Source of the DNA: an uncultured Myxococcales bacterium
Lineage (GTDB): Bacteria; Myxococcota_A; Polyangia; Palsa-1104; JAEUJZ01
Assembly: GCA_937868485.1 (NCBI GenBank)
Contig: CALMML010000112.1
Span: forward strand, 4,161 to 68,160
DNA: 64,000 bases
Direction of reading: 5' to 3'
Both the position numbers and the translations under genes were made by a program. Positions 28,201 through 61,445 of this stretch are shown one piece after another. Below the pieces are notes generated by a model. That model saw only the letters and a list, made by a program, of their open reading frames with translations, did no database searches and was not told where the DNA came from. Within the stretch, counting starts at the first letter, position 1; each line of letters opens with the position of its first letter.

Positions 28201-28234
28201 GCTGTCCTCCAGGACGAAAAACGGGGGTTTGTGA

Positions 28235-29083
28235 CTACGGCGCAGCCTGCGCGGGACCAGACGGCAGCGGTGCAGGTGCGGACGTACCGGGAACCGATCC
28301 ACCTTGCAGTGGAGTCGGTGAAGCAGAGCCAGGAGGCAGCAGCGACGGATCCGAAGGTGCCGCTGCGGGCTCCGGCGGGATGACGAGCGGGACTCGATTG
28401 GGGTCACCGGGACCATCGAGGTTTGCAGGCGCTTCCGCTGGTGGAGGAGAAGCCACGGGACTCACGACTGTCGCTGGCTTGCCGGTTCCAAACTGATAGG
28501 CGACGCCAACATCGAGCAGGTAGCTGCCTTGAAACGGCTCGCCCTGCCCTGTCAGGCCGTAACCACCGGCTCGCGCAAACACGCTGACCGGAACCTTGAG
28601 TCGTGGCTGAAAGTCAAAGCCCAGGCCACCGAGTCCAAGCGGCATAAAGTAGTTCCCCACCGTCGGTGCGGTCTGCACGATGCCACCGTCGACAGTGGTC
28701 TGCATCGAGCCGGGTCGATTGAGCGCGTTATAGCCAATCCCAAGGTGCAGGTCGAAGAACAGTCCCGTCGGTAGTGCGACGCGATAGCCGCCCGACAAGA
28801 AGATGAACAGGCTGTAGCCCGGCGACGCGGAATAACCACCGATGCTGGCGCCGAACAGGAACTGACTGACACCACGCGCCCAAGCGGTGCCCTCGTAGGA
28901 CAGTCGAGCGCCGGGACGGACCGCGCTTTCTCCGAAATAGGACAAGGCCACACGTCGTGGCTTGTCTTCCGAAGCAGCAGTCTGCGCCCGCGCGGAACCG
29001 AAACCGAACGTCATCGCCTGCGAGACAAGCAGCGCAGCGACAGGAAAAGGGAAGGACAGAGATCGACCCAATCGAGGTGTCAT
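28235..29083 (-). CDS. Hypothetical secreted protein, possibly an outer-membrane beta-barrel, with a Pro-rich C-terminus.
   Basis: Start MTPRLGRSLSFPFPVAALLVSQAMTFGFGSARAQ (signal peptide). Alternating Gly/aromatic-rich beta-strand-like segments. Immediately upstream of the lipase-like gene, likely an operon. Confidence 0.5.
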   Translation of the reverse strand: MTPRLGRSLSFPFPVAALLVSQAMTFGFGSARAQTAASEDKPRRVALSYFGESAVRPGARLSYEGTAWARGVSQFLFGASIGGYSASPGYSLFIFLSGGYRVALPTGLFFDLHLGIGYNALNRPGSMQTTVDGGIVQTAPTVGNYFMPLGLGGLGFDFQPRLKVPVSVFARAGGYGLTGQGEPFQGSYLLDVGVAYQFGTGKPATVVSPVASPPPAEAPANLDGPGDPNRVPLVIPPEPAAAPSDPSLLPPGSASPTPLQGGSVPGTSAPAPLPSGPAQAAP

Positions 29084-34600: not shown

Positions 34601-35619
34601 TGCCGAACAAGACGACCAACGACAAGTTCGACAGCAAGAACACCGGCTGGTCGGTTTCCGAAGATCCCGAGCTGTTCGTCGAGCCATGGCAGTACGTCTT
34701 TTCATCGGGCAACGGCATGTGGCACGGACCAGACAGCGCCGAGCCAGCGGATCACCGCTTCGTCTCACCGGATCTGAAGATCGGTGCGAACGGCATGACC
34801 GTCACGGTTCGTCACCGCTACTCGTTTGAGACCGATGGCATCGGCTACTACGACGGCGGCGTCATCGAGCTTTCCGACGATGGCGGCGTGCTCTGGATCG
34901 ATGTGACCGCGATTCCTGGCGTGTCGATCTCGAACGGCTACACCCAGTCACTCGCGGCGTCTCCGTCGAAGAATCCACTGGCAGGACGCATGGCCTTCGC
35001 GGGTCCAAGCACCGACTACCCGACCAAGTGGATCGAGACCAAAGTGGCGATTGGCAAGATTCTCGCGGGCAAGACCGTCAAGCTGCGCTTCCGTAGCGGC
35101 AGCGATGACACCGTCGGAGCACCGGGCTGGGACATCGACGCTGTCTCGATCGAAAATCTGGAAAACAAGCCGTTCGGTGAACAAGTCATCCACCGTGGCG
35201 AGTGCGTGATGAAGCCGGTGTCGAAGTTTGCGATCTCGTCGACGGATCTTTCCAACATCCCGGTTGGGTTCCAGGTGCAGCTGCTGGCCACCGCGACGAA
35301 CGCGACCGGCGCTGTGACGTGGAAGTGGGAGCAGACCAACGGACCGGCGGTCACGCTGTCGGCCACGGACATTGCCAACCCGACGTTCATTGCACCGACG
35401 GTAACCAGCCCGACGACGCTCACCTTCAAGGTGACGGCGCAAAATGGCGATGTCTCTCGCGAGACGATGGTCAACATCCAGATCGTCAAGGCGCAGAGCA
35501 CCAGCGGCGACGCGAGCAGCGGTTGTAACTTCGGTGGAGGCACGTCCTCGACAGCCGGAGCCGGTCTGGTCCTCTCCGCGCTCGCCCTCATCGCTCGCCG
35601 TCGACGCAGCCGCGCGTAA
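31696..35619 (+). CDS. M36 (fungalysin)-like zinc metalloprotease lipoprotein with an inserted PA domain and a C-terminal MYXO-CTERM sorting signal.
   Basis: Lipobox LMGAC. HEWGHILSNRL and downstream GEGWSDF zinc-binding motifs. PA domain GKIALMWFGEGNCTSRAKVKNAQLAGAKGVIVVS. C-terminal GCNFGGGTSSTAGAGLVLSALALIARRRRSRA. Confidence 0.75.
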   Translation: MRKNWFGSRIFLGTAVSLMGACGMPSAPEAPALPQGPEAGPALQVVTQVMHRDKVNGQPTMAHLQAQAVALPGTDAKAVAWSTLRGLKSSYRLSDEALSGAKLQDLHDAGNGPLIAHFDQEIDGIPVFHRSLKVAMDREMNPQFVVGSFAPSTVKVAEQWTLDEAVAVSSAFNAMSGAQKALSRVSFTGKRSGGYVALELESAKDMEGLIQSGPARVRKIWYPTEEGLIPSYYAELDVGYSNNKDSKMMAFVVSAIDGTIFFKHSLTAADAFTYRVWADSTGRKTPWDSPMGNDFTPHPTGTRTAAAPTPAFKSSNLVTLESAPFSRSDPWLPADATDLSGNNVFAYADLASPDGWSAGDAKVSLTGPKTFDRVYDPTTDPLASTNNSQAITTNLFYILNWMHDYFYDAGWTESAFNPQKSNKGRGGVEGDPIRGEAQDAGGRNNANASTPADGGMPRIQMYVWDAIGATGKVTAPADIAGDYETSGAPYGASLFSVTGEAVIVDDGVGNTGDGCEAPFKNAAAVSGKIALMWFGEGNCTSRAKVKNAQLAGAKGVIVVSVDPTIGLPAMGGTDATITIGVVGMTYEDGIKLWDKVKAGTPVNVTIGGSRSTHDGSLDTGVVSHEWGHILSNRLIGNATGLSNNQGGSMGEGWSDFIVLLTIVRPEDINVPANANWNGVYPDMSYSIWAPGNKAFYDGLRRYPYSTDKTKNPLTFKHIEDGNPLPTSPAPSFGGDGVSNSEVHNAGEIWATVMWECYAALLRDSRLNFDQANERMRRYLVSSLKLTPNAPTFLEARDAVLAAAWVSDRADYDLFVAAFAKRGMGSGAQGPDKSSTDHAGVVESYVTGADVSIDRIVLDQSKTDCDQDGILDNGETGRLLVTIRNTGNKDLTSGALKVTSNKPTVTVSASPATFPTLAPFQSTVVSVEVSMKDATEVTTFDLGLEVSGQGLYKPGTIQQTYTTQGNYDVVPNKTTNDKFDSKNTGWSVSEDPELFVEPWQYVFSSGNGMWHGPDSAEPADHRFVSPDLKIGANGMTVTVRHRYSFETDGIGYYDGGVIELSDDGGVLWIDVTAIPGVSISNGYTQSLAASPSKNPLAGRMAFAGPSTDYPTKWIETKVAIGKILAGKTVKLRFRSGSDDTVGAPGWDIDAVSIENLENKPFGEQVIHRGECVMKPVSKFAISSTDLSNIPVGFQVQLLATATNATGAVTWKWEQTNGPAVTLSATDIANPTFIAPTVTSPTTLTFKVTAQNGDVSRETMVNIQIVKAQSTSGDASSGCNFGGGTSSTAGAGLVLSALALIARRRRSRA

Positions 35620-35762
35620 CGCGCACCTTCCCCCTCTTCCGTCCCCCAATCCATCCCAAAGCAAGCCACGGTGACCCAGCGGGCACCGTGCGCTTCGTCG
35701 TGACCGCTCAGCGACGACATCAAAGCAAGGTGCCGTAGCGTCTCGGCTACACCAAGCGACCG

Positions 35763-36530
35763 CTACTGCTTCGAAAACACCGGACAGAGACGACCGCTGC
35801 GCGCAGCCCCGGCGAAGCGTCCATGCGGCTTCGGCAGTGTCTTGATGCTTCCCAGCGTCGCGTTCAAGCTGCCGTCAAACAGCGGATTCCCTGACTGCTC
35901 GACGATCCGAAACGAGCGCAGGTTGCCTTCATCATCGATCGTCAGACACGCCGCGGCCTGAAGCTTCGCCAGCTCCTCGGGCTTGAGCATCGTCGGCACC
36001 GTCCAGCGCTCCAGCACCGCCGCAACGATCTCGCGCAGGTACGGATCGCCCGCCGCTTCGTTGGCCGATCCACCGCGCACACCGTTTGGATCACCTTCTT
36101 CGAGCGCCTCACGCGTCGCTCGCTCATCGTCATCGGCGCGCAGGTTTCGCGTCAGATCCGTCAGCTTGGCCAGCGCATCGGGCTTCTTCTCTTCTCGCTT
36201 CTGCGCGGGCTTGTCGGGATCCTGCGCCAGCTTGATCTTGTTCTTGTCAGCGGTGCGCGGCGTCGTCTCGACGTGTGGCAGAAACGACAAGTCACGCTTG
36301 CGACCGAACTTGAGCAGCTTCACATCGACGAACACTTCGGGACCGCTTGGCCTTGGCTTGTCGACGTGACGACTGCTTCGCCACAGCATCAGCAGGCCGC
36401 CGCCGTTGAGCGCCAAGGTCAGACACAGCCCCGCGACGAGCCCATTTCGATCGAGCGGTCGATGTCGCAGCGAGCGCTGTCGCTCTTCCACGGGCTGCGC
36501 CGGTTCCGCGCTGGCATTGGGAGCCGTCAT
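35763..36530 (-). CDS. TonB/TolA-like energy transducer (N-terminal TM, Lys/Pro/Glu-rich linker, TonB-C domain).
   Basis: TM LVAGLCLTLALNGGGLLML. Charged linker. C-terminal YLREIVAAVLERWTVP...GNPLFDGSLNATL matches the TonB C-terminal fold. Immediately downstream of exbD. Confidence 0.7.
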   Translation of the reverse strand: MTAPNASAEPAQPVEERQRSLRHRPLDRNGLVAGLCLTLALNGGGLLMLWRSSRHVDKPRPSGPEVFVDVKLLKFGRKRDLSFLPHVETTPRTADKNKIKLAQDPDKPAQKREEKKPDALAKLTDLTRNLRADDDERATREALEEGDPNGVRGGSANEAAGDPYLREIVAAVLERWTVPTMLKPEELAKLQAAACLTIDDEGNLRSFRIVEQSGNPLFDGSLNATLGSIKTLPKPHGRFAGAARSGRLCPVFSKQ

Positions 36531-36535
36531 GACGA

Positions 36536-36976
36536 CTACTGCGCCTCCTCGCGGCTCGACATCGGATCGGTGATCAGTCCCACCTTGTCCGCGCCCGCTT
36601 TCGACGCCAGCGACATCACCGTGATCACGTCTTGGTAGCGCAAGCTGCCGTCGGCGTGGATGTACATCTCGCGCTCGGACTGGAGCTTGTCATTGGTCCG
36701 CAGCTTCAGCTCCAGCTCCGCAAAGCGCACCGGGTTTTTCCCCAGATACACGACCTGATCTTTGGGAAAGCTCGCCGGGATCGTCAGGATGATCTTCGCA
36801 TCTTCGCTATCGAGCGACTGCGTTTCACCCTTGGGTAGCACCACCGGCACACCCGTGGTCGCAATCGGCGCAGCGACCATGAAGATGATGAGCAGCACCA
36901 GCATCACGTCGACCAGCGGGGTGACGTTGATCTCAGAGACCATCTGCGAGGAATCGCGAGAGGGAGACATGGCCAT
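36536..36976 (-). CDS. exbD: ExbD/TolR family proton-motive-force transducer subunit.
   Basis: MAMSPSRDSSQMVSEINVTPLVDVMLVLLIIFMV, with the conserved Asp in the TM helix. 146 aa from the internal ATG at 36976. Confidence 0.8.
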   Translation of the reverse strand: MAMSPSRDSSQMVSEINVTPLVDVMLVLLIIFMVAAPIATTGVPVVLPKGETQSLDSEDAKIILTIPASFPKDQVVYLGKNPVRFAELELKLRTNDKLQSEREMYIHADGSLRYQDVITVMSLASKAGADKVGLITDPMSSREEAQ

Positions 36977-37121
36977 GTGCGGAGTATATCGCCAGGGAAA
37001 ATCGGGATCGAATGGCGAAGTGACATCCGACTGCATCAGCGACGATTTGTCGTCGAGAGTCCACCTGCCCGCGTCCGCACGCGTCTCCCGGTAGAGCCCC
37101 GTTTTTCTATATGATGTTCGG

Positions 37122-38963
37122 ATGTCGCTCCTTCACCAAGTGTGCGTCCTGCTGATCGCTGCGGTCTTGGCGGTGCCTCTGTTTCGGCGACTCAAGCTTG
37201 GCGCGGTGCTCGGCTACCTGGCGGCAGGACTGTTCATCGGTCCGTGGGGACTGCGACTCATTGCCGACGTAGAAAGCATCCTGCACTTTTCCGAGTTTGG
37301 CGTCGTGCTGCTGCTGTTTCTCATCGGCCTGGAGCTAAACCCGTCTCGGCTGTGGGTGATGCGACGAGCGGTCTTCGGTCTGGGTGGCGCGCAGGTGGTG
37401 GCCACGACGCTGGCGATTGGTGCACTCGGTGTGCTGGTCGGAGCGCCGACGCTCGCATCCCTCGTGGCTGGCTTTGGTCTTGCACTGTCGTCGACTGCGT
37501 TTGTGCTGCCAATCTTGGCCGAGCGAAACCAGCTTGCAACGCCACACGGTCACGCCGCGTTCGCGATCCTGCTGTTTCAAGACCTGGCGGTCATTCCGCT
37601 CCTGGTGATCTTGCCGATGCTGTCGGACACCGCAGCGACAACCCACACAAGCGGGCTCGTTACAGCGGCCAAGATCGTCGCAGCCCTGGTCGGTCTGGTC
37701 ATCGCCGGTCGGTTTCTGCTGCGCCCGGTGTTCAAGCTGATCGCAGCGTCGGGAAATCAAGAGATCATGACCGCGCTCGCACTGCTTGTGGTCGTCGGAA
37801 CCGCCTCGATCATGCACGTTGTCGGGCTGTCGATGTCGCTCGGAGCCTTTCTCGCTGGCGTGCTGCTGGCAGAGTCCGAGTACCGTCACGAGCTACAAGC
37901 CGACATCGAGCCATTTAAAGGCCTGCTCCTCGGACTGTTCTTTATGGCCGTCGGCATGTCCACAAACCTGGGCATCATCCGCGATGAGCCGCTGCGTGTG
38001 ATGGGCGTGGTGCTCGGCTTCATGCTGGCCAAGACGGCGGTCATCTACGGCGTCAGTCGCCTGTTTGGAGAGTCCCGTGACTCGTCCCGCAACGTCGCGA
38101 CCTCGCTGTCCCAAGGTGGCGAGTTTGCCTTCGTACTGTTCGGCATCGCCGCCGCCGCCAAAGTGCTCAGCCCACACGCCGCCGACTTCCTGGTCGTTTC
38201 CGTCACCGTGTCGATGATCCTGACGCCGCTCAGCTTTCTGTTGAATGAGCGACTGCTCACCCGATGGTTCACCAAAGACGAGCCGCGCGAGTTTGACGCC
38301 ATCGCCGAGCACGAAAACCCCGTCGTCATCGCTGGCTTCGGTCGCGTCGGTCAGATCGTGGGCCGCATCCTGCGCCTGCGCAAGATTGGCTTTACCGCGC
38401 TCGATGCCACACCGACGCACGTCGACTTTCTGCGCAAGTTCGGCAACCAGATTTACTACGGAGACGCCACCCGGCTCGACCTGCTCCGCGCCGCACAGCT
38501 CGACAAGGCCAAGATCCTGGTGCTCGCCATCGATGACATGGTCGCTTCCGTCAAAGTGGTCGAGCTGGTTCAGCATCACTTTCCGTCGGTCAAGATCTAC
38601 GCGCGCGCGCGCAACCGTCAGCACGCTTATCAGCTCCTCGCGATGGGTGTGCAGAACATCATCCGCGAGACGTTTGAGGCCAGCTTGACGCTGTCTCGTC
38701 AGGTGCTCGAAGGGCTGGGCGTTTCCGATAGAACAGCCAAAGACACCGTCGACAAGTTCGCAGAGCGCGATGAGGAGATGGTCCGCGCGATGTACGTCTA
38801 TCGACACGATGAAAAGAAGCTCATCGAGTCGGTCAAGCAGTACACCCAAGAGCTGGAGAGCCTGTTTAACAACGACGCGTCGAGCGATGGATCGCCTCCC
38901 GAGCTGGTCACGACCCAGTTTCAGCCTCCGTCCGCGTCCTCGAAGAGCAGTCAGCCCAACTGA
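37122..38963 (+). CDS. kefB: KefB/KefC-type CPA2 K+/H+ antiporter with a C-terminal RCK (TrkA-N) domain.
   Basis: 13-TM Na+/H+-exchanger-like N-terminus. Rossmann GFGRVGQIVGRIL in the C-terminal RCK domain. 613 aa. Confidence 0.85.
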   Translation: MSLLHQVCVLLIAAVLAVPLFRRLKLGAVLGYLAAGLFIGPWGLRLIADVESILHFSEFGVVLLLFLIGLELNPSRLWVMRRAVFGLGGAQVVATTLAIGALGVLVGAPTLASLVAGFGLALSSTAFVLPILAERNQLATPHGHAAFAILLFQDLAVIPLLVILPMLSDTAATTHTSGLVTAAKIVAALVGLVIAGRFLLRPVFKLIAASGNQEIMTALALLVVVGTASIMHVVGLSMSLGAFLAGVLLAESEYRHELQADIEPFKGLLLGLFFMAVGMSTNLGIIRDEPLRVMGVVLGFMLAKTAVIYGVSRLFGESRDSSRNVATSLSQGGEFAFVLFGIAAAAKVLSPHAADFLVVSVTVSMILTPLSFLLNERLLTRWFTKDEPREFDAIAEHENPVVIAGFGRVGQIVGRILRLRKIGFTALDATPTHVDFLRKFGNQIYYGDATRLDLLRAAQLDKAKILVLAIDDMVASVKVVELVQHHFPSVKIYARARNRQHAYQLLAMGVQNIIRETFEASLTLSRQVLEGLGVSDRTAKDTVDKFAERDEEMVRAMYVYRHDEKKLIESVKQYTQELESLFNNDASSDGSPPELVTTQFQPPSASSKSSQPN

Positions 38964-38972
38964 TCCCGTCCG

Positions 38973-39428
38973 CTAGGCGATGTTCTTGATCCGTGCCCGC
39001 TGCGACGACAGCCACGCCAGCGCCTCATCCCGACTCCCGAAGAAGGAAATCGGATTGCTGATGTTCGGCACGCGACGAAGCAGCTCCAGCGCGCGAAAGA
39101 ACAGCGTCAGCAGCGCGCGCGTCACCAAGCTCGCCCCCACGATGGCAATGGCGCCCAGGTACGGACGATCATCCGCCGACACCAGCCCCGTGTAGCGCCG
39201 CGTCTCGGGAGTCAGGTTCCGCATGCGATGGACATCCACCAGCATCAGGTCATAGCCGCACTCGGCGCGTATCGACTGCCCGGAGCTGTGAATCACATCG
39301 ACGTCTTCATTGGTCACATCACCGTCGATGTATAGATCGGTGCGGTCGTGCTCGACGCGAACCAAGCGGTGGCGCCCGAAGTGCAGCGTCTCCCCGATCT
39401 TCATGGATCCGATTGTGTCCGATCGCAC
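38973..39428 (-). CDS. Hypothetical protein, possibly STAS/SpoIIAA-like fold.
   Basis: ...YLGAIAIVGASLV...FFGSRDEALAWLSS C-terminus. Related in pattern to the protein at 15088-15510. Confidence 0.45.
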   Translation of the reverse strand: MRSDTIGSMKIGETLHFGRHRLVRVEHDRTDLYIDGDVTNEDVDVIHSSGQSIRAECGYDLMLVDVHRMRNLTPETRRYTGLVSADDRPYLGAIAIVGASLVTRALLTLFFRALELLRRVPNISNPISFFGSRDEALAWLSSQRARIKNIA

Positions 39429-39513
39429 AAAAAAACGGTGAGCTTCAGGATCTGATGTGTGTCAGCCTCGGCGCAGGTCGAGCCAGCAACCCCGGCCAGC
39501 CCACGTCAGCAGG

Positions 39514-40068
39514 CTACTGACCCTTTTGCATCACAATCAGACGGTAGTTCGCAAACTCAGCCTGCCCGGCGGAATACAGGACTTCCGTGAGCAGCCGATA
39601 CGGCGTCCGACGATCCGCCATGATGATGGCCACGCCGTCAAACGTCTGGCTCTGAAGCTGTGCCAGCCGGGTCAGTCGCGTCCGGTGCTTCGACAGCGCG
39701 CTCACAATCGGATCGATCGCGTAGCCCTGCTGACCTTGCGACTTCCACTTCGCATCGACCTGCCCGCCTTTGACCTCGACCACCGCGTCGTCTTCGACCA
39801 CGATCGCACTTTGCGTGATCGTGATGTTCACCGCAGGCTGCGGCTGACGCTTGGCCGTCGAAGCTGGAAGCTGAAGCCCGGTCGGCTGACTGACCGCCAG
39901 CTGCTGCACCGAGAACTGCTTGATCAAAAAGACCAGCAGGATCGTCATCATGTCCATCATCGGCATGATGTTGAGGAAGTTGATCTCCTCGGCCTCTTCC
40001 TCGACCTTGCGACGCAGCTTCCACAGCGCCTTGCGCGCCTGACGACGATCCACCTCTTGGCGAGCCAT
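39514..40068 (-). CDS. ExbD/TolR family protein (AglS-like second stator subunit).
   Basis: NIMPMMDMMTILLVFLI TM helix with the conserved Asp. It overlaps the upstream TolR gene's stop by 1 bp. Confidence 0.75.
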   Translation of the reverse strand: MARQEVDRRQARKALWKLRRKVEEEAEEINFLNIMPMMDMMTILLVFLIKQFSVQQLAVSQPTGLQLPASTAKRQPQPAVNITITQSAIVVEDDAVVEVKGGQVDAKWKSQGQQGYAIDPIVSALSKHRTRLTRLAQLQSQTFDGVAIIMADRRTPYRLLTEVLYSAGQAEFANYRLIVMQKGQ

Positions 40069-40652
40069 CAGTTCACCCCCGCGCCAAGAAGTACGCCCGG
40101 AAACAGCACCTTGCCCTCGTCGCTGCCTTGCACCGGGCTCTGCCGCATCGAATCCATCGTCGAAACCAGCAGCTCATAGGGAATCTGCGGCGTTGCGGTG
40201 ATGATCGCGCGCTCTTCTTCGGGGTACAGCGCCTTTAACTGCACCAGGATCTGCGTCAGCGCCACCAGATCGTGCTTGCCGTCCGGCCCAAGCGGTATCG
40301 TCGGCAGCTCAGTTGAGTTCTGCTGCACACCTTGCGCCGTCAGCACAAAGCCGCGAAACAGCACCGACCCCGACGTCGCCAGCGTATAGCCCTTTTCGGT
40401 GATCGAAACCGTCAGGTTGAGCTCCGGCTTCGGAGCCGCCGCTGGTGCCGACGATGCCACCGACGCGGTGGGCAGGTTGATGTTGATGCTCGCGAGCGAA
40501 GCCTGAAAGGTAATCGTCGCCAACAAGAACATGATGATGTTCATGATGATGTCGAGGTACGGCACGAGGTTTAGCTCGCCCGACTCCTCGGCCAGCTCTT
40601 CCCCATGCTCGCGGAGCTTCCGCATACGGAAGCGCAACCTCTGAATCGTCAT
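40068..40652 (-). CDS. ExbD/TolR family protein (AglQ-like).
   Basis: LVPYLDIIMNIIMFLL TM helix with the conserved Asp. 194 aa. Confidence 0.75.
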   Translation of the reverse strand: MTIQRLRFRMRKLREHGEELAEESGELNLVPYLDIIMNIIMFLLATITFQASLASININLPTASVASSAPAAAPKPELNLTVSITEKGYTLATSGSVLFRGFVLTAQGVQQNSTELPTIPLGPDGKHDLVALTQILVQLKALYPEEERAIITATPQIPYELLVSTMDSMRQSPVQGSDEGKVLFPGVLLGAGVN

Positions 40653-40679
40653 ATCGACCTTTACCCAGTCGTCTGTCGG

Positions 40680-41390
40680 TTAGTCGTTGTCTTCGTCGTC
40701 GATATCGCGAGCCCGACGGCCCTTGCGATCGCCACGACCTTCTTTTTCCGCCGCTGGTGCCGGTGGGTTCGCGATCAGGTCGAACAGCAGGTTTTCCAGC
40801 CGAAGCGCGAAGCTCTCCAGCTCTTGCTGCTTGTTCTTGCTCGCCGCCGACAGAAACAGGTGACCGATCATGCACAGCGCGGCGATGGCCAGACCGAGCC
40901 AGGTGTTGTTCATGGCTTCGGAAATCCGCGTCGCCAGGATCGTGCTGCGCTGATCCGCCGCCGCCTTGCCGATCGCCGCGAAGCCACCGATCAGACCGTT
41001 GATCGTGCCAAGCAGTCCAAGCAGCGTCGCGATGTTGGCCAGCGACCACAGCACCGCGATCCGCTTCTTTAGCTCTGGCGTCGCATCGGTCAGCGCTTCC
41101 TCGATCGCAGTCGAGACAGCCACTTCACCGCTCTTGAGCTTCGACAGACCCGCCCGCGCGACCTGAGCCACCGGCGCATCGGACGACTGACTCAGCCGCT
41201 GCGCCTTTTCAAGCTGTCCCGCGCTGAGAAGCTTGCGAAGCTGCTCCAGGAAAGCCCGGGCATTCACCGAGCCTTTGCCCAGAAAAAACAGCGCTCGGTC
41301 GATGATCAGCGCCACGACGATGACCGAGCACAGCAGGTTCACATACATGAAGAACCCGCCCTGCTCGAAAAACTCTTTCAGCTGCTGCAT
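40680..41390 (-). CDS. MotA/TolQ/ExbB proton-channel family protein (AglR-like).
   Basis: 3-TM topology. C-terminal TolQ signature ...AIAKAAADQRSTILATRISEAMNNTWLGLAIAALCMIGH. 236 aa. Confidence 0.85.
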   Translation of the reverse strand: MQQLKEFFEQGGFFMYVNLLCSVIVVALIIDRALFFLGKGSVNARAFLEQLRKLLSAGQLEKAQRLSQSSDAPVAQVARAGLSKLKSGEVAVSTAIEEALTDATPELKKRIAVLWSLANIATLLGLLGTINGLIGGFAAIGKAAADQRSTILATRISEAMNNTWLGLAIAALCMIGHLFLSAASKNKQQELESFALRLENLLFDLIANPPAPAAEKEGRGDRKGRRARDIDDEDND

Positions 41391-41417
41391 GAGAAATGGC
41401 CCCTAAGGACGTAACGG

Positions 41418-41765
41418 CTACTGAATCTCTAACATTTGGCCGATGAAAGCGAAATCGCCCGCGTAATTTCCGGGGTCGATCTCCGCAAAATCGGGGCGAC
41501 CGGGCAGCGTTTCATCGCTCACCACCTCGGCGATGCGTGACTGAACGTAATCCCGCACGCTCTGTCCCTTCCCCAGGTCGATCACGAACAGCACCTTGGC
41601 TTTGACCACGCCCGTTTCCAGGTCAGTCGACAGGACAAACAGCACCGCTTTGCCGCCCTTGCCGTTTTCGTAGTCCTGGCGGGCTGCGTAGAAAGTGGTC
41701 GTCACCGACGTGGTATCACGGGTCTCAAGCCTGGAAAACTGAGTCGGCGGGATCAGGTCGCTCAT
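41418..41765 (-). CDS. Hypothetical protein upstream of the TolQ-like gene.
   Basis: Good codon bias. No recognisable domain. 115 aa. Confidence 0.5.
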   Translation of the reverse strand: MSDLIPPTQFSRLETRDTTSVTTTFYAARQDYENGKGGKAVLFVLSTDLETGVVKAKVLFVIDLGKGQSVRDYVQSRIAEVVSDETLPGRPDFAEIDPGNYAGDFAFIGQMLEIQ

Positions 41766-41972
41766 GGGTGCTCCTTTGCACGCCGCCCCATACGCGGCAG
41801 GCCGGTCCTATTATGCCGGTCGGATACGCGCGTCGAAACCCCAAAAAGCGAAGTTGTATCCGTCTCTACCTGAGACATCAGTCGGGAGTGATTCCCGAAC
41901 CATGGCTGCCGCCCTTAACATCTAATGGACCAGCCGCTGGGCGACGAACCATTTGCGAAAGAGACCAGGGAC

Positions 41973-43163
41973 ATGCCGATCCTGCGAACGCTGCTGTTTG
42001 TAACCATCATGACGCTGGCCCTGTGTGGGCTGCACTACTACCTGTACGTACGGATCTCGCGTGGTCTGTCCCTGGGTCCGGCAGAGCAGCGCCTGCTCAA
42101 GCTGGGGATCGGCGGTCTGTTTGCCCTGCTGTGGCTCAGCTTTCCGCTCGCCCGCGCGGCACCTCGGCACATTGCGTCGCCGGTCCTGTGGGTCAGCTAC
42201 ATCTGGATGGGCACCATGGCGGTGTCTTCGGTGGTGTTCGGGCTGGTCGATCTGGCGCGGCTGGCTGGCTCCGCACTGTCGCCGATGCTGCCAATTGACG
42301 AGTCACGGCGCGCGTGGATCAGCAAGCTGGTCGATGTCATGGCGCTCGGGGGAGCCGCGACCTTATCGGCCACGGCGCTCGCGCTCGGACTGCGCAAGGT
42401 CGGGGTGAAGCGCGTCGAGGTCTCGCTCGCCAAGCTGCCGCCGAGCCTCGATGGCTTTCGGATTGTTCAGCTGACCGACGTTCACATCGGGCCGACGCTC
42501 GATGGTCGCTGGCTCAAAGAGGTCGTTGCCAAGGTAAACGCCCTGGCCGCCGACGTGGTGGTCATCACCGGCGATCTGGTAGACGGTAGCGTCTCTCAGC
42601 TGCTGTCTCACGTCGAGCCGCTCCGCGATCTGAAGGCCAAGCACGGGGTCTATTTCGTCACCGGCAACCACGAATACTACTCGGGCGTCGATGCCTGGCT
42701 GACCGAGCTTCGCCGCCTGGGAATGACCGTGCTGCGCAACGAGCGAGTGACCCTGCATCCCCAAGGGCTGGCCGGTCCTGGCGCCGGAGCGCTTGGCATA
42801 GATCTCGTCGGGGTGGACGACTATCACGCCGGGGTCTTTCCAGGTCACGGCCCCGATCTGCCCAGAGCGCTCACCGGGCGTGATCCGTCCCGACTCGCCG
42901 TGCTGCTCGCACATCAGCCCGCCGCCATCGAAGAAGCGGCCCAGCTTGGCATCGATCTCCAGATCTCCGGTCACACCCACGCCGGACAGCTGTGGCCGTG
43001 GGGGTATTTCGTACGGCTCCAGCAGCCCTATGTTCACGGACTACACCGCCACGGCAGCGCCCAGATCTATGTCAGCGCAGGAACCGGCTACTGGGGTCCG
43101 CCCATGCGGCTTGCGTCCGAAGCCGAGATCACCGAGCTGGTCCTGCGTCCCCGGCCAAGCTAA
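41973..43163 (+). CDS. Membrane-anchored metallophosphoesterase (calcineurin-like, YkuE-type).
   Basis: Three N-terminal TM helices. Then GDLVDG, GNHEYY and GHTH phosphoesterase motifs. An alternative upstream start is at 41925. Confidence 0.75.
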   Translation: MPILRTLLFVTIMTLALCGLHYYLYVRISRGLSLGPAEQRLLKLGIGGLFALLWLSFPLARAAPRHIASPVLWVSYIWMGTMAVSSVVFGLVDLARLAGSALSPMLPIDESRRAWISKLVDVMALGGAATLSATALALGLRKVGVKRVEVSLAKLPPSLDGFRIVQLTDVHIGPTLDGRWLKEVVAKVNALAADVVVITGDLVDGSVSQLLSHVEPLRDLKAKHGVYFVTGNHEYYSGVDAWLTELRRLGMTVLRNERVTLHPQGLAGPGAGALGIDLVGVDDYHAGVFPGHGPDLPRALTGRDPSRLAVLLAHQPAAIEEAAQLGIDLQISGHTHAGQLWPWGYFVRLQQPYVHGLHRHGSAQIYVSAGTGYWGPPMRLASEAEITELVLRPRPS

Positions 43164-43657: not shown

Positions 43658-45208
43658 TCAGAACAGTCGCAGCTGCGGCTTCGGCACGCGCTTCTTCGGG
43701 GCGGCTTGCACCACCGTCAGCGCTGCGGGCACCTCAGACAAAAACGGGCTCGGCCCGCTCTCGCCACGCGCGGAGCCGTGGGTCGCCAGGCCGGAATCGA
43801 CATACGACAGGTACAGCCGCTCTTTGGCACGGGTCATCCCCACGAAAAACAGCCGCCGCTCCTCTTCTCGCTCTTCATCGCTGCGACCCGGACCCGGGAG
43901 CTGCCCAGCTTCCAGCCCGACCAAAAACACCACCGAAAACTCCAGTCCCTTGGCACCGTGCAGCGTCAGCAGCGCCAGTCGCTGATCTTCCAGGTGATCT
44001 GACTCGTAGGTCGGCTCCAGCACAGGCTGCTGCGGCTCTGCCTCGGCACGCTTCCGCTTCACGCTGGGGCGAGTAAACGGCAGTCCCGACTCTCCCAGTG
44101 CTTTGGCCAGCGAGTCCGCCCGCGCCACGGTCCGCGTCAGGATGGCCACATCCGCAAAGCCATAGCCACCTGGCTGCCACGACGCACTCTGCCCGGTGTC
44201 GTACGCCAGCAAGCTGGTCCCGCCGATGAGCCGCTCGATCTCTTTTACCACCCGCTGCGCCTCCGCAAAGGGGCTGTCGCTCCGCCACAGGATGATCGGC
44301 TCGCCCGACGGACACTTCGGCACAGGGGACGGCGCACTGCGCGCACTGTTGTGAGCAATCACCGCCGCTGCGGCCCGCACGATCTGCGGCGTACTGCGAT
44401 GGTTTTCCACCAGAAACCGCGACACCGCAGAGGGGAAGTCGTCCAAAAACCCGCGAAAGTGCCGCACCTCACCACCGCGAAAGGCATAGATCGCCTGGTC
44501 GGGATCACCTATCGCCAGCACCTGCGCAGCTTGACCGAGCGCAACCGTCATCGCTCGCTGCACCGCACTCACATCTTGGTACTCATCCACGGCGACAAAG
44601 CGAAACCTGCGCCGCACGGCATCCGTCTTTAGCACCACCAGCGCGCGCAGCAGCAGATCATCCAGGTCCACCGCCTCCGCGTCGCCCAGGAGCTGTTCAT
44701 AGCGACGAAGCACTTGCAGCTCTTCGGGCGATAGATCCAGTTCCCCCACAGGCAGCCGCTGCGGATAATCGGGATGCTGACCTTTGCGCAGCGAGATCAG
44801 CGACGCCAGACTGGACGCCGACTTGCGACAGCCGCTGCCCACCAGCGCCTGTTCGATAAGCGCCAGCCGCTCGGCTTCGTCCCCCACATGCTGCGACGGC
44901 AGAAGCGGAGCCACCAAGACCGCCAGCCGGTGAAACGTCCCCACCATCAGTCGCTGCGCACGCGGCCCAAGCAGCGTCGACAGTCGCTCCGTCAGCTCTT
45001 GGGCCGCCCGGCGGGTAAACGTCACCGCCACGATCTCTTCGGGCTGCGCCTTTTGCGACGCGATTCGCTCGACAATCCAGGCACACAGCGTCCGCGTCTT
45101 GCCTGAGCCCGGTCCCGCCGTCACCAGCTGCGGTCCGCTCGCATACGTCGCAACCTGATGCTGAACCGCCGATAGGCCCGCCAGCCACGGCGAAGTCTCG
45201 ACGCTCAT
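43658..45208 (-). CDS. Compact UvrD/PcrA-like superfamily-1 DNA helicase.
   Basis: Motif I AGPGSGKT, motif II VDEYQD, III GDPDQAIYAFRG, and V/VI TLHGAKGLEF...VGMTRA. 516 aa, shorter than canonical UvrD. Confidence 0.85.
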   Translation of the reverse strand: MSVETSPWLAGLSAVQHQVATYASGPQLVTAGPGSGKTRTLCAWIVERIASQKAQPEEIVAVTFTRRAAQELTERLSTLLGPRAQRLMVGTFHRLAVLVAPLLPSQHVGDEAERLALIEQALVGSGCRKSASSLASLISLRKGQHPDYPQRLPVGELDLSPEELQVLRRYEQLLGDAEAVDLDDLLLRALVVLKTDAVRRRFRFVAVDEYQDVSAVQRAMTVALGQAAQVLAIGDPDQAIYAFRGGEVRHFRGFLDDFPSAVSRFLVENHRSTPQIVRAAAAVIAHNSARSAPSPVPKCPSGEPIILWRSDSPFAEAQRVVKEIERLIGGTSLLAYDTGQSASWQPGGYGFADVAILTRTVARADSLAKALGESGLPFTRPSVKRKRAEAEPQQPVLEPTYESDHLEDQRLALLTLHGAKGLEFSVVFLVGLEAGQLPGPGRSDEEREEERRLFFVGMTRAKERLYLSYVDSGLATHGSARGESGPSPFLSEVPAALTVVQAAPKKRVPKPQLRLF

Positions 45209-46533
45209 CCAAACAGTCCCATCTGCTGAGACGACGATGAAGACGCTCGCTCACTTGGTTCAACCAGCCCCACCCGTCCGTACTCGCCATCAAAGCCCGC
45301 CGCGATCCGCAGCTCTCCTCGCCGCATCCGCACCAGCGCTTCCCCAAGCAGCGGGTCCGCCACCCGCCGGATGTCTTGCGGCAGCGCCGAGCGCAGCACA
45401 AACAGCTCCGGCCCCACCTCGTTCAGCAGTCGAAAGTACAGTCGCTGCACGGCATCCGACGCAGCGGTCTTGCCCAGGACATCGGCCAGCACCTCGGTAA
45501 GCGGCACCAAGCGCTCGAACGGACGAGCCCGAGGTGGACGAAACGTCGAGTCGCCATCGATCGGACGGTCAGCCAGCGCCTCGACACGCGACAGCACCCC
45601 GACCGTCACCGGCTTGCCACAGCGCGGACACAGCCCGCCGAGCTTGGCCCGCTCGCTCGGCTCCAGCCGCACCCCGCAGTCGCGATGTCCGTCGAGGTGA
45701 TACTTTCCTTCCTCCGGGTAGAACTCCAGGGTGCCCAGAAACTCTTCGGGCAAGCACAGCGCAAGCGCCTTTCGCAGACCAGCAAACGTCGGCGGATCCG
45801 CCAGGTGGAGACGGGTCAGCTCCCGGCCCAGCTTCTGCGGCGAGTGCGCATCCGAGCTGGAAATCAGCGTCAAGTGATCGAGCGCCGACAGCCGCCAGTT
45901 CATCGCCGGGTCCGAAGACAGCCCCGTCTCCAGCGCGAAGATGTGCGGCGTCAGATCGCCAAAGCAGTCGCTCAGCCGGTCAAAGCCAGACAGCGAGCCA
46001 AACACCGAAAAGTGCGGCGTCCAGATATGGGCCGGGACCAGATACGCCCGGCTGTCCGTCGATAGAAGCAGCTCCAGAAAGTCGCGACACGGCATGCCCA
46101 GGATCGGACGACCGTCCGAGTGCAGGTTGTAGCCCAGGCGCAGCAGCCGGTCCGCCACCTGATCCGCACAGTCGAGGCTCGGCAGCACAATCAGGTTGTG
46201 GACTTTGCGTACCGCGCCGTCTTTTTTGAAGATGTGCGAGATCTCACCGGCCAGCACAAAGCGCACCCGACGACGACACGAGCGCGGAACCGCCTCATCG
46301 AGCGGCGCGCGGAGGTCTTCCCGCAGCTCATACAGCCCTTCGCCACGCCCTTCATCGGCAGGAACCAGCTGCTGGCGCAGCTCGGCTCGCCACACCGGGT
46401 GCAGCACGTCGCCCGTCGCCACCACGTCGATGCCTTTGCGCTGCGCCCACTGGTACATGTGCCCCAGGTCCATGTCCGCGCTGACGGCCCGCGAAAACCG
46501 AGAGTGAACGTGCAAATCAAGCAGCAGCTCCAT
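45205..46533 (-). CDS. PHP-domain protein with a C-terminal zinc ribbon (EndoQ-like / TIGR00375-type nuclease).
   Basis: MELLLDLHVHSRFS plus a downstream His/Asp PHP motif. Zinc ribbon CPRCGKPVTVGV. Its stop overlaps the helicase start by 4 bp. I chose the ATG at 46533 over the TTG at 46569. Confidence 0.7.
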   Translation of the reverse strand: MELLLDLHVHSRFSRAVSADMDLGHMYQWAQRKGIDVVATGDVLHPVWRAELRQQLVPADEGRGEGLYELREDLRAPLDEAVPRSCRRRVRFVLAGEISHIFKKDGAVRKVHNLIVLPSLDCADQVADRLLRLGYNLHSDGRPILGMPCRDFLELLLSTDSRAYLVPAHIWTPHFSVFGSLSGFDRLSDCFGDLTPHIFALETGLSSDPAMNWRLSALDHLTLISSSDAHSPQKLGRELTRLHLADPPTFAGLRKALALCLPEEFLGTLEFYPEEGKYHLDGHRDCGVRLEPSERAKLGGLCPRCGKPVTVGVLSRVEALADRPIDGDSTFRPPRARPFERLVPLTEVLADVLGKTAASDAVQRLYFRLLNEVGPELFVLRSALPQDIRRVADPLLGEALVRMRRGELRIAAGFDGEYGRVGLVEPSERASSSSSQQMGLFG

Positions 46534-46663
46534 GGGCCGACCGTAGCCAGGACTCCGTCGCTGCTGCAACGTGTAAGGCGGGTTAAAATCACCCCGCTGC
46601 CGTCGCCATTTTTACCAAGCGGAACCGCGTCTTACGTGACAGAGCCCGTGGTACGCTACGAAC

Positions 46664-49162
46664 ATGCCAAAGTTCCACCCCGAGGCCCCCGACCTGGTGG
46701 TGAGCCCCGATGGAAAGTGGGCCGCAGAGCTGACCTCAAGCGAGCTGAAGGTCTACGCCCTTGCAGCCGGTGACCCCGAAGCGACCGAGCTACAGCCGGT
46801 CGAGACCATGCGTCACGACGACCGCCCCGGTCGCATCTTCTTCGTTCACCCCGAGCGACTGCTTCACCTGTGGGTGGAAGACGCAACCGAGGGCAGCGCA
46901 GGCTGTGTCGTCGCCGAGCTTCTGTCCGTACCGCAGCTTTCCAAGATCGGACGCTCGGTGCGGGTGCCCGGCGCAATCCGAATCCTCGGCGGCGGACCCG
47001 GTGGCGTGGTGGTCGCGCCCGCTGGCATGGGCGCCGAGCTGGTCATCCCCAGGGAAAGCGACATCATCGTCTACAAGCTGTTTGTCCGAGGGGAAGCACT
47101 GTCCGCTGGCGCCACCCCAGATCACCGTGTCGTCATCGAGCAGCGCGGTGTCTTCGAGATCTGGGACACGCAGACCCGACGGGCGATGGCCAAGCTGATC
47201 CTCAACACCCGACAAGCACCGCTCCAGCTTGGCTTTGTTGGCGACGGCAAGATGGTCTGGGCCCTGACCAGCGCCATCCCCATGCGCATCGAGGTCTTTC
47301 GCGCATCCGACGGACTGCGACTGCTCGAGCTGGAACAGCCTGGACGCGGCCTGTGTGCCGAGACGGCCCCCGGACGCCTGGTGATTGGCTTTGAAGACCA
47401 CAAGAGCATCAGCTTCCTCGACCTCGATGTGACCACGCGCAGCCTCCGTCGCGTCAGCTTGCCCAAAGACAGCAAGCGGCCCCTGAGCTTCGCGCTCAGC
47501 CCGAGCAGCAAGCAGCCTGAGCTACTCGTCCGGGTCGAAGACGAAGATCAGCCCTTTGTCCGCCTGCCGCTCGCCAAGATCAGCACCAGAGAGACCGTTG
47601 CACAGCCAGGCACCGAGACACGCGGTGGCTCACGCGGTCCCCAGCCAGCCCAAAGGCCAGCAAGCCGGACCGAGCCAAGCGCCAAGCTGTCCTCACGCGC
47701 GCTGCGTGATGCCCGTCCAGAGTCTCGGCTGATCCGCCGCATCTCCGAATCAGAGTCCGCGCAGGCCGAGCCCCGCAGCAAGCCGCTAACGCCTCCGGGC
47801 CCAGAAGCAGTGCCCTCGAAGCGCTCGCCGCGACCGGACCCCCAGGAATCCGAGTCACCAAGGGACAGTGATCGAGACGAAGCCGACGCGCTGGCCGTCA
47901 GCGAAGCAGAACCGGCAGCCAGCACCCCGCGCGAAGACAGCGAGCCAGTGGCCGTCCCTCTGGTTCCCGAGATTGCCCTGGGTGGTCAGCCGGTCCCGCC
48001 CCAGGTTCACAGCCCCCCGCCCAAGCCTGCGCTGCGCGCTTACGATGCCCAGCGCAGTCCCGCCGCCTGGCAGTGGGAGCTGGCCCGCTGGGCCCAAGGC
48101 TGCTTGCAGTCCGCAGAGGCCGAGTCGCCCCCTTCCGCAGGGCCGCTTCACGAGCTGGGTACGCGCCTGGGCCTGTCGACCGCCGCGCAGCGGGTGCTGG
48201 GACTGCTCTATGCGGCGTCGCAGCTGCTCGGGCTGCGAGCACGCGGCATGCGTCCGGTGGAGCTGGCCCTGAGCCTGCGGGGTCAGTGCGAAGAGCCCGA
48301 GGTCTTGGCCGAGCTACTGCCCGCCGCCCCGCTGCTTGCCCTCGACCTGATTGCGCCACGACCCGATGGACGACTGTGCCTGCGTCCTGCCGTGGCCCAG
48401 CGCCTGTCTGGAGCCCCCGATCCACAGGTCCAGTGGCCGCAGGCACCGTCACGCGAGCTGCTCCAGCCAGGGCTGTATCTGCTCGATGGACCCTGTGTGA
48501 CCCGTCCGGCGCGCCTGCTCGGACGCGCGGTGCTGCGACTGGATGGACTGACAGAGCCGCAGCCCCACAAAGCCCTGCCCGCCCGCCTGCGCCGGGCCTT
48601 GCTTCACGATGCCGTGCTGGTCATTGATGGCCTGTGCGGGCTGTCGTTCCCCGCCTTCAGTGCCCCGACTGTGCTGGCCGAGCTTCTCCCGCAGCTTGCC
48701 GCGCCGCGTGTGCCGGTCGTGCTGTGGGCCATGCCCGATGCCGCTGCATCAGCTGGGCTCGCCGGTCGCAAGCTGTCCGAGCTGATCATTGTCCGCGAGG
48801 GACCAGCCCCCGGCTTTCCCAGCAGCGCGCTGCCCCCTGGGGTGCTGTTCAGACCACCAGCCCCGGCAGCCAAAGCCGCCACATCCACGCGCAGCACCGG
48901 ACAGCTCATCGTCCATCAGACGGCGGACCGTCGCGCCGCCCTGGTCCTTGGACCCAGTGCCAACGCCGAAGCCTACGCCCGCGCAGCCTACCTGGCCGCC
49001 CGCGATGGTGCGCTGCTCGTGCTGGAAGCAGAGCTTACGCCGCCACGGACTGCGCTGCTGGCCATGCTCCTGCGGCAGCTCCCCGTGGTCGTGTCGGCGA
49101 TCCCACCAGGCGGTGCGGACCAGCCGTGGCCGATCGAGCTGCGACCCTTTGCCCACGCCTAG
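46664..49162 (+). CDS. Large hypothetical protein (832 aa). N-terminal structured region, Pro/Ser/Glu-rich disordered middle, Leu/Ala-rich C-terminal region.
   Basis: Long ORF with coding-like GC3. No recognisable catalytic motif. Confidence 0.5.
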   Translation: MPKFHPEAPDLVVSPDGKWAAELTSSELKVYALAAGDPEATELQPVETMRHDDRPGRIFFVHPERLLHLWVEDATEGSAGCVVAELLSVPQLSKIGRSVRVPGAIRILGGGPGGVVVAPAGMGAELVIPRESDIIVYKLFVRGEALSAGATPDHRVVIEQRGVFEIWDTQTRRAMAKLILNTRQAPLQLGFVGDGKMVWALTSAIPMRIEVFRASDGLRLLELEQPGRGLCAETAPGRLVIGFEDHKSISFLDLDVTTRSLRRVSLPKDSKRPLSFALSPSSKQPELLVRVEDEDQPFVRLPLAKISTRETVAQPGTETRGGSRGPQPAQRPASRTEPSAKLSSRALRDARPESRLIRRISESESAQAEPRSKPLTPPGPEAVPSKRSPRPDPQESESPRDSDRDEADALAVSEAEPAASTPREDSEPVAVPLVPEIALGGQPVPPQVHSPPPKPALRAYDAQRSPAAWQWELARWAQGCLQSAEAESPPSAGPLHELGTRLGLSTAAQRVLGLLYAASQLLGLRARGMRPVELALSLRGQCEEPEVLAELLPAAPLLALDLIAPRPDGRLCLRPAVAQRLSGAPDPQVQWPQAPSRELLQPGLYLLDGPCVTRPARLLGRAVLRLDGLTEPQPHKALPARLRRALLHDAVLVIDGLCGLSFPAFSAPTVLAELLPQLAAPRVPVVLWAMPDAAASAGLAGRKLSELIIVREGPAPGFPSSALPPGVLFRPPAPAAKAATSTRSTGQLIVHQTADRRAALVLGPSANAEAYARAAYLAARDGALLVLEAELTPPRTALLAMLLRQLPVVVSAIPPGGADQPWPIELRPFAHA

Positions 49163-60635: not shown

Positions 60636-61445
60636 TTACGGCGATCCTTGGACGCTCGGCTGCGACGGAGCGGACAGCGCGGCGTTCTTGTGCGAGAGGA
60701 CTTCTTTGGCGAGCTGACCGTACGCATACGAGCCACGCGACGCCGGGTCATACTTCAAAATCGGCAGTCCGTGAGACGGCGCTTCCGACAGGCGAATGTT
60801 ACGCGGCACCAGCGTCTTGTAGACCTTGGGACCAAAGTGGCCGCGCACCTCGCTTTCGACCTGCTGCATCAGGCTCGTGCGGGTATCGACCATCGTCAGC
60901 AAGATGCCTTCCAGCTCTAGGCTTGGGTTCCACACTGCACGAACCTTATCGAGCGTCGAGAGCAGATACGACAGACCTTCCAGCGCAAAGTATTCGCACT
61001 GCATCGGCACGAGCACACCATCGGCAGCCACCAGCGCGTTCAGCGTCAAGAGCCCAAGCGACGGCGGACAGTCGATCAGGATGTAGTCGTAGCGATTGCG
61101 GACCTCAGCGAGCGCGTCGTGAAGCTGCCACTCGCGCCGCTCGGTGCCGACCAGCTCGACCTCGGCACCGGCCAAGTCAGCCGTCGAGGGAACGAGCCAC
61201 AGCGTCGATAGCACCGTAAGCTGCGTCAGCTCTCGCAAGGACACCTTATCAATCAGGCTGTGATAGACGCCTTGCTCGACGGAACCGCGCACAAAGCCCA
61301 GCCCCGAGGTGGCGTTGCCCTGCGGGTCGAAGTCCACGACCAAGACCTTCTCGCCCTCTTCGGCAAGAGCGGCAGCCAAGTTCACGGTGGTGGTGGTCTT
61401 GCCCACTCCACCTTTTTGGTTGGCAACTGCGATGACTCGACCCAT
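60636..61445 (-). CDS. parA: Chromosome partitioning ATPase ParA/Soj.
   Basis: Deviant Walker A VANQKGGVGKTTT. Start MGRVIAV is at the internal ATG 61445. The ORF-track start at 61523 adds a non-conserved extension. Confidence 0.9.
   Translation of the reverse strand: MGRVIAVANQKGGVGKTTTTVNLAAALAEEGEKVLVVDFDPQGNATSGLGFVRGSVEQGVYHSLIDKVSLRELTQLTVLSTLWLVPSTADLAGAEVELVGTERREWQLHDALAEVRNRYDYILIDCPPSLGLLTLNALVAADGVLVPMQCEYFALEGLSYLLSTLDKVRAVWNPSLELEGILLTMVDTRTSLMQQVESEVRGHFGPKVYKTLVPRNIRLSEAPSHGLPILKYDPASRGSYAYGQLAKEVLSHKNAALSAPSQPSVQGSP

Follow-up and report, generated by a model that had tools for sequence, protein, structure and literature searches.

A further Agl-like TolQ-TolR-TolR triad with a tolQ-less TolR-TolA neighbor in an uncultured Polyangia bacterium

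Introduction

Does a TolQ-like gene followed by two TolR-like genes mark a gliding motor in a myxobacterium, and does a TolR-TolA pair encoded close by belong to the same machine? Both questions are raised by a 64-kb stretch of DNA (the window) from contig CALMML010000112.1 of an uncultured Myxococcales bacterium, in which our focus is on positions 39514-41765, which hold the three genes, and on a TolR-TolA pair at 35763-36976. A sequence-only reading had compared the three genes, here called the triad, with the proton-driven gliding motor AglRQS of Myxococcus xanthus. It had also suggested that the pair, taken for an orphan ExbD-TonB, either uses the channel of the triad or was separated from it when an ancestral tolQ-tolR-tolR-tolR-tonB unit was split by insertion.

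Our analysis identifies the window triad as a further TolQ-TolR-TolR triad of the Agl-like kind, beside which lies a TolR-TolA pair that, unusually, has no tolQ next to it. We favor the reading that these are two different proton-motive-force modules that became neighbors by secondary juxtaposition, and we give this reading a probability of about 0.6.

Results

The triad and its operon

The triad lies on the minus strand and consists, as the sequence-only reading had described, of one MotA/TolQ-family gene followed by two overlapping ExbD/TolR-family genes, each with a transmembrane Asp. In the AglR position is a TolQ/ExbB-family channel subunit of 236 residues (40680-41390; Pfam PF01618), in the AglQ position a first divergent ExbD/TolR-like protein of 194 residues, ExbD-a (40068-40652; PF02472; Asp34), and in the AglS position a second one of 184 residues, ExbD-b (39514-40068; PF02472; Asp39). 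The same interval contains an open reading frame (ORF) for 115 residues, orf115 (41418-41765, minus strand), which the earlier reading had left unmentioned and which is probably the first gene of the operon. The stop codon of orf115 lies 27 nt before the ATG of the channel gene, ExbD-a begins 27 nt past the channel-gene stop and ExbD-b overlaps ExbD-a by 1 nt (TGATG); because of these short spacers and the overlap, orf115 and the triad look like one operon. When 35500-42100 was scanned for promoters and terminators, nothing promoter-like emerged and the gene ends lacked any convincing terminator.

To place these genes, we scanned for relatives of the channel gene with one genome per species. 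At least 586 relatives were found, and the best 80 loci (L004-L083), all from metagenome-assembled genomes (MAGs) labeled Polyangia, Myxococcales or Deltaproteobacteria, were examined. Relatives of the window TolR were designated L084-L086, L107 and L108, and distant triads L101-L103 and L106. In essentially all of the best 80 loci the three genes recur in unchanged order and each ExbD matches its positional counterpart, with identities to the window of 52-95% for the channel, 36-91% for ExbD-a and 34-96% for ExbD-b. Since orthologs (36-98% identity) keep this order in ~80 other genomes, the triad genes are no chance ORFs, and the synteny comparison that the sequence-only reading had proposed yields an arrangement kept in ~80 species. 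The channel protein has thousands of relatives, of which the closest are MAGs labeled Myxococcales, Polyangia or Deltaproteobacteria, and an exhaustive search of cluster representatives with it returned 41 clusters at E<1e-30. The triad is usually free-standing and sits in varied contexts. Two genes recur beside it among the 80 loci, one for a class A penicillin-binding protein on the upstream side (37 loci) and one for an H+-pyrophosphatase immediately downstream (47 loci); in 27 loci a CDF cation-efflux gene also lies upstream.

The protein encoded by orf115 has no Pfam or NCBIfam match. Orthologs of 63-94% identity are found at the corresponding place in L004-L009, and L010 and L013 have weaker matches. 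A single-sequence AlphaFold2 (AF2) model (pLDDT 62.7) suggests, at low confidence, a four-stranded sheet with two helices, and comparison of this model with Protein Data Bank (PDB) folds gave no meaningful structural match.

The three triad proteins

The triad proteins belong to the superfamily of TolQ/ExbB plus ExbD/TolR stators. The channel protein matches PF01618 with 75.3 bits (cut-off 22.9), and its AF2 model (pLDDT 77) aligns with Escherichia coli TolQ in Foldseek with a TM-score of 0.71-0.75 at 19% identity. Two pore threonines of TM2 and TM3, T129 (in GLLGT) and T163 (in NNT), are invariant in 81 sequences and line up with GLFGT and GTT in a bona fide TolQ. Toward the N-terminus, Y16 and N18 are unchanged in 80/80 sequences that have a residue there, and S22 is kept in 76/80. 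Both ExbD proteins likewise pass the PF02472 cut-off of 25.4 bits, ExbD-a with 53.2 and ExbD-b with 46.8 bits, and their transmembrane aspartates are retained in every ortholog with a residue in the column (D34 in 72/72; D39, which sits in an MMDMMT motif, in 71/71).

Within this superfamily the triad proteins are divergent. ExbD-a and ExbD-b are only 28% identical to each other, and both exceed canonical ExbD in length by ~40-50 residues. Against solved TolQ and ExbD/TolR chains, the triad proteins reach only E ~1e-3 to 1e-4; the best PDB matches of ExbD-a, to ExbD and TolR, reach only ~1e-3, and its best matches overall are first-position ExbDs of other triads. The tolQ, exbB, tolR and exbD equivalog models all score far below cut-off for the triad proteins. 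In particular, the channel protein scores 56.7 bits on the tolQ model against a cut-off of 221 and is 26% identical to bona fide Polyangia TolQ, and the candidate assignment as canonical TolQR was rejected, which upholds the earlier separation of the triad from the Tol-Pal TolQR.

The last 30 residues of the channel protein form, in the clade of the window, a disordered and highly charged tail (…EKEGRGDRKGRRARDIDDEDND). Channel proteins of the tail-bearing clade have 236-287 residues, while most of the family have ~213 and no tail. Judging by a published cloning primer, M. xanthus AglR has an acidic C-terminus as well, RDEEE. The MDLASVT start and RDEEE end of AglR deduced from that primer were found in no representative, and a metagenome scan with the primer gave 14 random matches, none of them MotA-like. 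A plasmid collection searched for AglRQS, Sorangium or Haliangium counterparts gave no match.

Phylogenetic placement and the gliding motor

Among more distant relatives, all contexts that we looked up were triads save L104 and L105 (both P0246); P0246 (L104) was rejected as a triad since its MotA_ExbB gene lies in an unrelated context. L101, on a Cloacimonetes contig, is a triad of 220/173/161 residues and L102 one of 261/211/210. L103 holds two divergently transcribed triads, termed p (230/199/289) and m (217/193/180). In L106 (165-2841), two tandem channel genes (224 and 225 residues) precede ExbDs of 169 and 205 residues, a duplicated-channel variant of the triad. The first-ExbD Asp lies at residue 28 in both L103m_D1 and L106_D1. 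In the window the cytoplasmic tail before it is longer, and the Asp is residue 34.

We built separate neighbor-joining trees (169-213 columns) for channels and ExbDs, with the other triads and canonical TolQ/TolR from relatives as references. The channel and ExbD trees are congruent. Triad ExbDs split from canonical TolR at 69% bootstrap, and in this comparison with TolQ/TolR, which the sequence-only reading had put forward, they stand apart from the canonical proteins. All second-position ExbDs form one clade (75%). The window family groups with L103p at 76% for the channel and 91% for the second ExbD, and the m-type channels form a separate clade (93%). L103p is also the nearest relative of the window triad outside its family, with a channel that is 44% identical (35% for the m channel) and a second ExbD that is 37% identical. 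Given that the second-position ExbDs are one clade, in which the window is sister to the p-type and the m-type lies apart, the split between first and second ExbD predates the split between the window lineage and the Asp28 lineage.

The L103 arrangement of two divergent triads matches that of Sorangium cellulosum, in which sce2991-2993 and sce2994-2996 are among the closest aglRQS homologs (Luciano et al., PMC3169522 Table S3); both Haliangium triads are listed there likewise (PMC3169522). In AglQ, a D28N mutation abolishes proton conductance (PMC3858216). Because their first-ExbD Asp is at residue 28 as in AglQ, the m-type triads, those of L103 and L106, are likely the AglRQS-proper lineage, a placement that also draws on their gene sizes and Sorangium-like layout. 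As judged from these trees, the window triad belongs to the same broad triad group as Agl-type motors and falls off the candidate AglRQS branch. It probably comes from a Polyangia-wide lineage that is sister to one of the two Sorangium-type triads.

How far, then, does the likeness to AglRQS extend? Many cultured Polyangia glide, and the triad could be a true AglRQS ortholog that powers Agl-Glt gliding with Glt proteins encoded elsewhere, as the sequence-only reading would have it. Like M. xanthus AglRQS (MXAN_6862-6860), the window has one TolQ-like gene and then two different TolR-like genes with a transmembrane Asp, and by analogy its channel is predicted to form a pentamer around a heterodimeric plug. 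The triad is also free-standing, with output partners predicted to be encoded elsewhere, as is the M. xanthus M1 cluster (PMC3169522), and the listing of the Sorangium and Haliangium triads as closest aglRQS homologs speaks in the same direction. Several observations point away from gliding. The window ExbDs have 194 and 184 residues against 162 and 194 in AglRQS, and the triad sits on another branch than the Asp28 triads, AglRQS being compared by proxy, with its own first-ExbD Asp at residue 34. We found no link to Glt or Nfs: Glt-type genes are absent from the window and from the 10 kb around the triad in the 80 relatives, and neither an FHA-TonB (GltG-like) gene nor a large TPR Glt-like gene occurs anywhere in the 64 kb of the window or next to the triad in these relatives, although M. 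xanthus aglRQS is itself unlinked to glt. In addition, M. xanthus requires its second Agl-like set, MXAN_3003-5, for neither motility nor sporulation, and the channel protein of this set binds neither GltG nor NfsG (PMC3858216). Lastly, a 2026 preprint reports that, within its MAG set, key A-motility homologs occur for the most part in Myxococcia and a small number of other groups. Thus, the proposed likeness holds for the layout, one TolQ-like gene and then two distinct Asp-bearing TolR-like genes, and lacks support for the gliding role, the triad being off the Asp28 branch and without Glt neighbors in the regions covered. We regard service of this triad as the Agl-Glt motor as quite improbable.

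Further free-standing Agl-like triads are M2 (MXAN_3003-3005), Sorangium sce2991-2993 or sce2994-2996, and Haliangium Hoch_3390-3392. Compared by size and layout, their genes are of similar length and encode 260/173/193, 225/187/202 and 223/242/187 residues, respectively, against 236/194/184 in the window. Unlike these triads, the window lineage adds the conserved orf115 and the long charged C-terminal tail of the channel.

A Tol-type TolR-TolA pair

An extra ExbD and a TonB/TolA-like gene had been reported ~2.5 kb from the triad on the same strand, and both are present at 35763-36976. The ExbD is a canonical TolR-type protein of ~146 residues (36536-36976, minus strand; PF02472, 104.3 bits); its ORF spans 36536-37036 and homologs put the true start at 36976. 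Its PDB matches are to ExbD (7.8e-21) and TolR (2.7e-14). On the tolR equivalog model TIGR02801 it scores 108.9 against a cut-off of 127.3, and the TolR proteins of L085 (119.8) and L107 (111.4) also fall just short. The adjoining gene encodes a TolA-like transducer of 255 residues (35763-36530, minus strand) with an N-terminal transmembrane helix, a charged linker and a TonB_2 C-terminal domain (PF13103, 36.9 bits; tolA_full weak, 25.4 bits). This transducer can be aligned over its whole length with its TonB_2 counterparts in L085, L086 and L107. The third ExbD is no paralog of the two triad ExbDs: it shares no significant similarity with either, only family membership, and recent paralogy was rejected.

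The genomic contexts of the homologs were informative. The TolR of L085 is 57% identical to that of the window and lies in a tolQ-tolR-tolA cluster whose TolQ exceeds the equivalog cut-off (227.1 vs 221); that of L086 (52%) lies in tolQ-tolR-tolA-tolB; and that of L107 (8001-10572; 64%) lies in tolR-tolA-tolB with no tolQ, its TolB again above the cut-off (347.3 vs 343.15). L108 (~8001-9300; 73%) and L084 (~8001-9300; 75%) are bare pairs with no tolQ. Because its homologs sit in tolQRA, tolQRAB and tolRAB clusters, the distant pair is, on sequence grounds, a Tol-type TolR-TolA, and the downstream TonB_2 protein is of TolA type, given that TolB comes next in L107 and L086. The likeness to Tol-Pal thus lies in the TolR-like and TolA-like proteins. 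It ends at the neighborhood, as no tolQ, tolB or pal adjoins the window pair and the nearby triad channel is no TolQ by identity.

The pair had also been said to lack an ExbB/TolQ of its own, and in a tblastn search of the 64-kb window (E<=10) the triad channel was the only MotA/TolQ/ExbB gene found. Nor were tolB, pal or Glt-like genes found there; the remainder of the window holds housekeeping and unrelated genes. The missing tolQ follows relatedness. No tolQ adjoins any of the pairs at least 64% identical to the window TolR (window, L004-L006, L084, L107 and L108), whereas the pairs at 52-57% identity (L085 and L086) have one. A tolR-tolA(-tolB) arrangement without a nearby MotA/TolQ/ExbB gene across a Polyangia clade is unusual for Tol-Pal, which is normally one unit. 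The orphan TolA proteins are also extended at their cytoplasmic N-terminus, by a length that varies and reaches ~25-30 residues.

These results bear on a second possible role of the triad. One ExbB with two ExbDs is not unique to AglRQS: M. xanthus Ton(Oar) is encoded as tonB1-exbB1-exbD1-exbD2, and three of the seven ExbB/ExbD clusters of this organism have no tonB gene (PMC6434023). Because MXAN_3003-5 and Ton(Oar) exist, gene order alone fails to identify a gliding motor. The triad might be a Ton-type ExbB-ExbD1-ExbD2 energizer for TonB-dependent outer-membrane transporters, as Ton(Oar) is; it has the same one ExbB-family and two ExbD-family genes in tandem, and in L005 and L006 a TonB_2 protein is encoded downstream. 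That protein, however, is the TolA-type one, and no TonB gene adjoins the triad in >70 species. Unlike in two-ExbD Ton systems, moreover, the triad proteins score only 25-31 bits on exbB models and 22-26 bits on exbD models against cut-offs of 123-216, and the ExbDs are the longer, divergent ones that match solved ExbD/TolR only weakly. A Ton-type role therefore appears distinctly unlikely.

A probably inserted STAS-KefB segment

Between the two modules, the window has a KefB antiporter on the opposite strand and a small STAS-like ORF, as had been noted, with the STAS-like call being weak. This ORF (38973-39428, minus strand; 151 residues) has sub-threshold Pfam matches only (DUF7793, 22.7 vs 26; SpoIIAA-like, 21.5 vs 25). 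The KefB/KefC-type K+/H+ antiporter (37122-38963, plus strand; 613 residues) is clear, with 215 bits to Na_H_Exchanger, 78 bits to TrkA_N and 719.9 bits to the NCBIfam KefC model; it is functionally unrelated to the modules and part of the probably inserted segment. L004 has the STAS-like ORF (77% identity) and KefB/KefC, and thus shares with the window a 2.5-kb STAS-KefB segment between ExbD-b and tolR. In L005 and L006 (channel 95% identical) the STAS-like ORF is absent, no KefB/KefC lies between the modules and the five genes are contiguous on one strand, with only 17 nt between the second ExbD and tolR in L005. Shortly before tolR comes a conserved GATATACTCC box, which in L005 abuts the stop codon of the second ExbD.

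Pairwise DNA identities define three roughly equidistant lineages, (window, L004), L005 and (L006, L007), which makes a single insertion in the window-L004 ancestor most parsimonious. Comparison of these sequences indicates that STAS-KefB was most likely inserted recently between the triad and tolR-tolA. In L006, the spacer from the second ExbD to tolR (~11910-12100) holds ~three tandem copies of a ~41-nt unit (TTTGACTTCGCGTCCAAGTCAAATCGGCTGTGCTGCACTCG); because these repeats occupy the same site as STAS-KefB in the window, the ExbD-b/tolR junction seems insertion-prone.

In triads of more distant relatives tolR-tolA does not adjoin, which makes the five-gene arrangement a local, secondary juxtaposition. 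The idea of an ancestral unit split by insertion can accordingly be kept for the split, since the five genes are contiguous in L005 and L006, and has to be given up for the ancestral tolQ-tolR-tolR-tolR-tonB operon, since the third ExbD and TonB_2 protein are a Tol-type pair and the five-gene unit is confined to one small clade.

A stator shared by both modules?

A third possibility, also raised by the sequence-only reading, connects the two modules: the canonical tolQ was lost in this clade, and the orphan TolR-TolA(-TolB) is energized by the TolQ-like pentamer of the triad, one channel serving alternative plugs and transducers much as AglRQS serves Glt and Nfs. The distribution of tolQ described above agrees with this, as does the 17-nt same-strand junction in L005, and the pair is evidently kept under selection (75-98% identity). 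The TolA helix provides a further argument. The His of the SHLS motif (Ser-x3-His) of TolA contacts TolQ TM1 in the solved complex (motif defined in PMC12215075), and at this position 7/7 orphan TolA helices have Asn, in Thr-x3-Asn, whereas the two TolQ-linked proteins, of L085 and L086, have Thr-x3-His or Ile-x3-His. TM1 of the triad channel contributes the near-invariant polar residues N18 and S22, and E. coli Ton and Tol cross-complement.

Yet a relocated canonical tolQ is the simpler explanation, and because the orphans form one clade the His-to-Asn correlation probably reflects a single event. The triad is equally conserved where TolR-TolA sits elsewhere. Adjacency is limited to one genus-level group and there it has been broken by STAS-KefB with no evident loss of either module, and the window TolR is unrelated to the triad ExbDs beyond the family level. 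We therefore consider a shared stator unlikely. If it did exist, one TolQ-like stator would accept three TolR-type plugs and several transducers, and TolA would have adapted to the new channel through the His-to-Asn change in its helix.

Other genes in the window

Converging on the TolA-like gene is a gene for a 1307-residue M36 fungalysin-type metalloprotease with PA and PKD-like domains (31696-35619). It scores 1345.8 bits on the NCBIfam model for myxosortase-dependent M36 peptidases (cut-off 1500), and its C-terminus, with a Cys, a Gly-rich stretch, a hydrophobic helix and an Arg-rich end, resembles a MYXO-CTERM sorting signal. At 29313-31625 is a gene for a 770-residue secreted protein with N-terminal InlB B-repeat-like domains and many WAVG..GT(I/V)L(R/H)(W/Y)DG(T/S)xW-like repeats that suggest a large beta-propeller; no family covers the repeats. 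Large ORFs at 46664-49162 (832 residues) and 26233-28416 (727 residues) have no Pfam or NCBIfam match. A 454-residue ORF at 45205-46569 has a sub-cut-off match to TIGR00375 (149.8 vs 326.6) and overlaps the stop of a UvrD-like helicase gene. Finally, a ParB gene (59673-60635) adjoins an ORF (60636-61523) that is a possible ParA by position only, and this pairing suggests that the window perhaps lies near the chromosomal origin.

Discussion

Our preferred reading, two separate proton-motive-force modules brought together secondarily, can be put in the following terms. The triad operon would run orf115, TolQ-like, ExbD-a, ExbD-b. By analogy with the solved structures of TolQ5R2 and ExbB5D2 and with the AglR5-AglQ-AglS model in the literature, the channel protein and both ExbDs may form a heteromeric inner-membrane stator. 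In it, a TolQ-like pentamer would enclose the helices of ExbD-a and ExbD-b as a heterodimer, with one protonatable Asp per helix. The output partner would be encoded elsewhere, and a general envelope task seems more likely for this triad than Agl-Glt gliding. Independently, the TolR-TolA clade appears to have lost its adjoining tolQ. TolR-TolA would then have come to lie directly downstream of the triad, as it does in the closest relatives, and in the window and L004 the 2.5-kb STAS-KefB segment was most likely inserted between the two.

Several points weigh against this reading. The deep nodes of the trees, obtained by neighbor-joining on 169-213 columns, have only 69-76% support, and the first-position ExbD clade has <50%. 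The m-type triads were equated with AglRQS through the Asp28 position, gene sizes and layout rather than by direct comparison. Missing glt neighbors are weak evidence against gliding, because M. xanthus aglRQS is itself unlinked to glt. The genome may still encode a canonical TolQ at another site. Lastly, the choice of insertion over deletion for the STAS-KefB segment rests on parsimony among three lineages with no informative outgroup.

For the annotation of myxobacterial genomes, our results mean that gene order by itself is no ground for calling a TolQ-TolR-TolR triad a gliding motor. Several lineages of such triads exist in myxobacteria, and the one described here is near-universal in uncultured Polyangia. 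The tolQ-less tolR-tolA(-tolB), which in one lineage lies directly behind the triad, raises the question whether 5:2 stators are shared between output systems.

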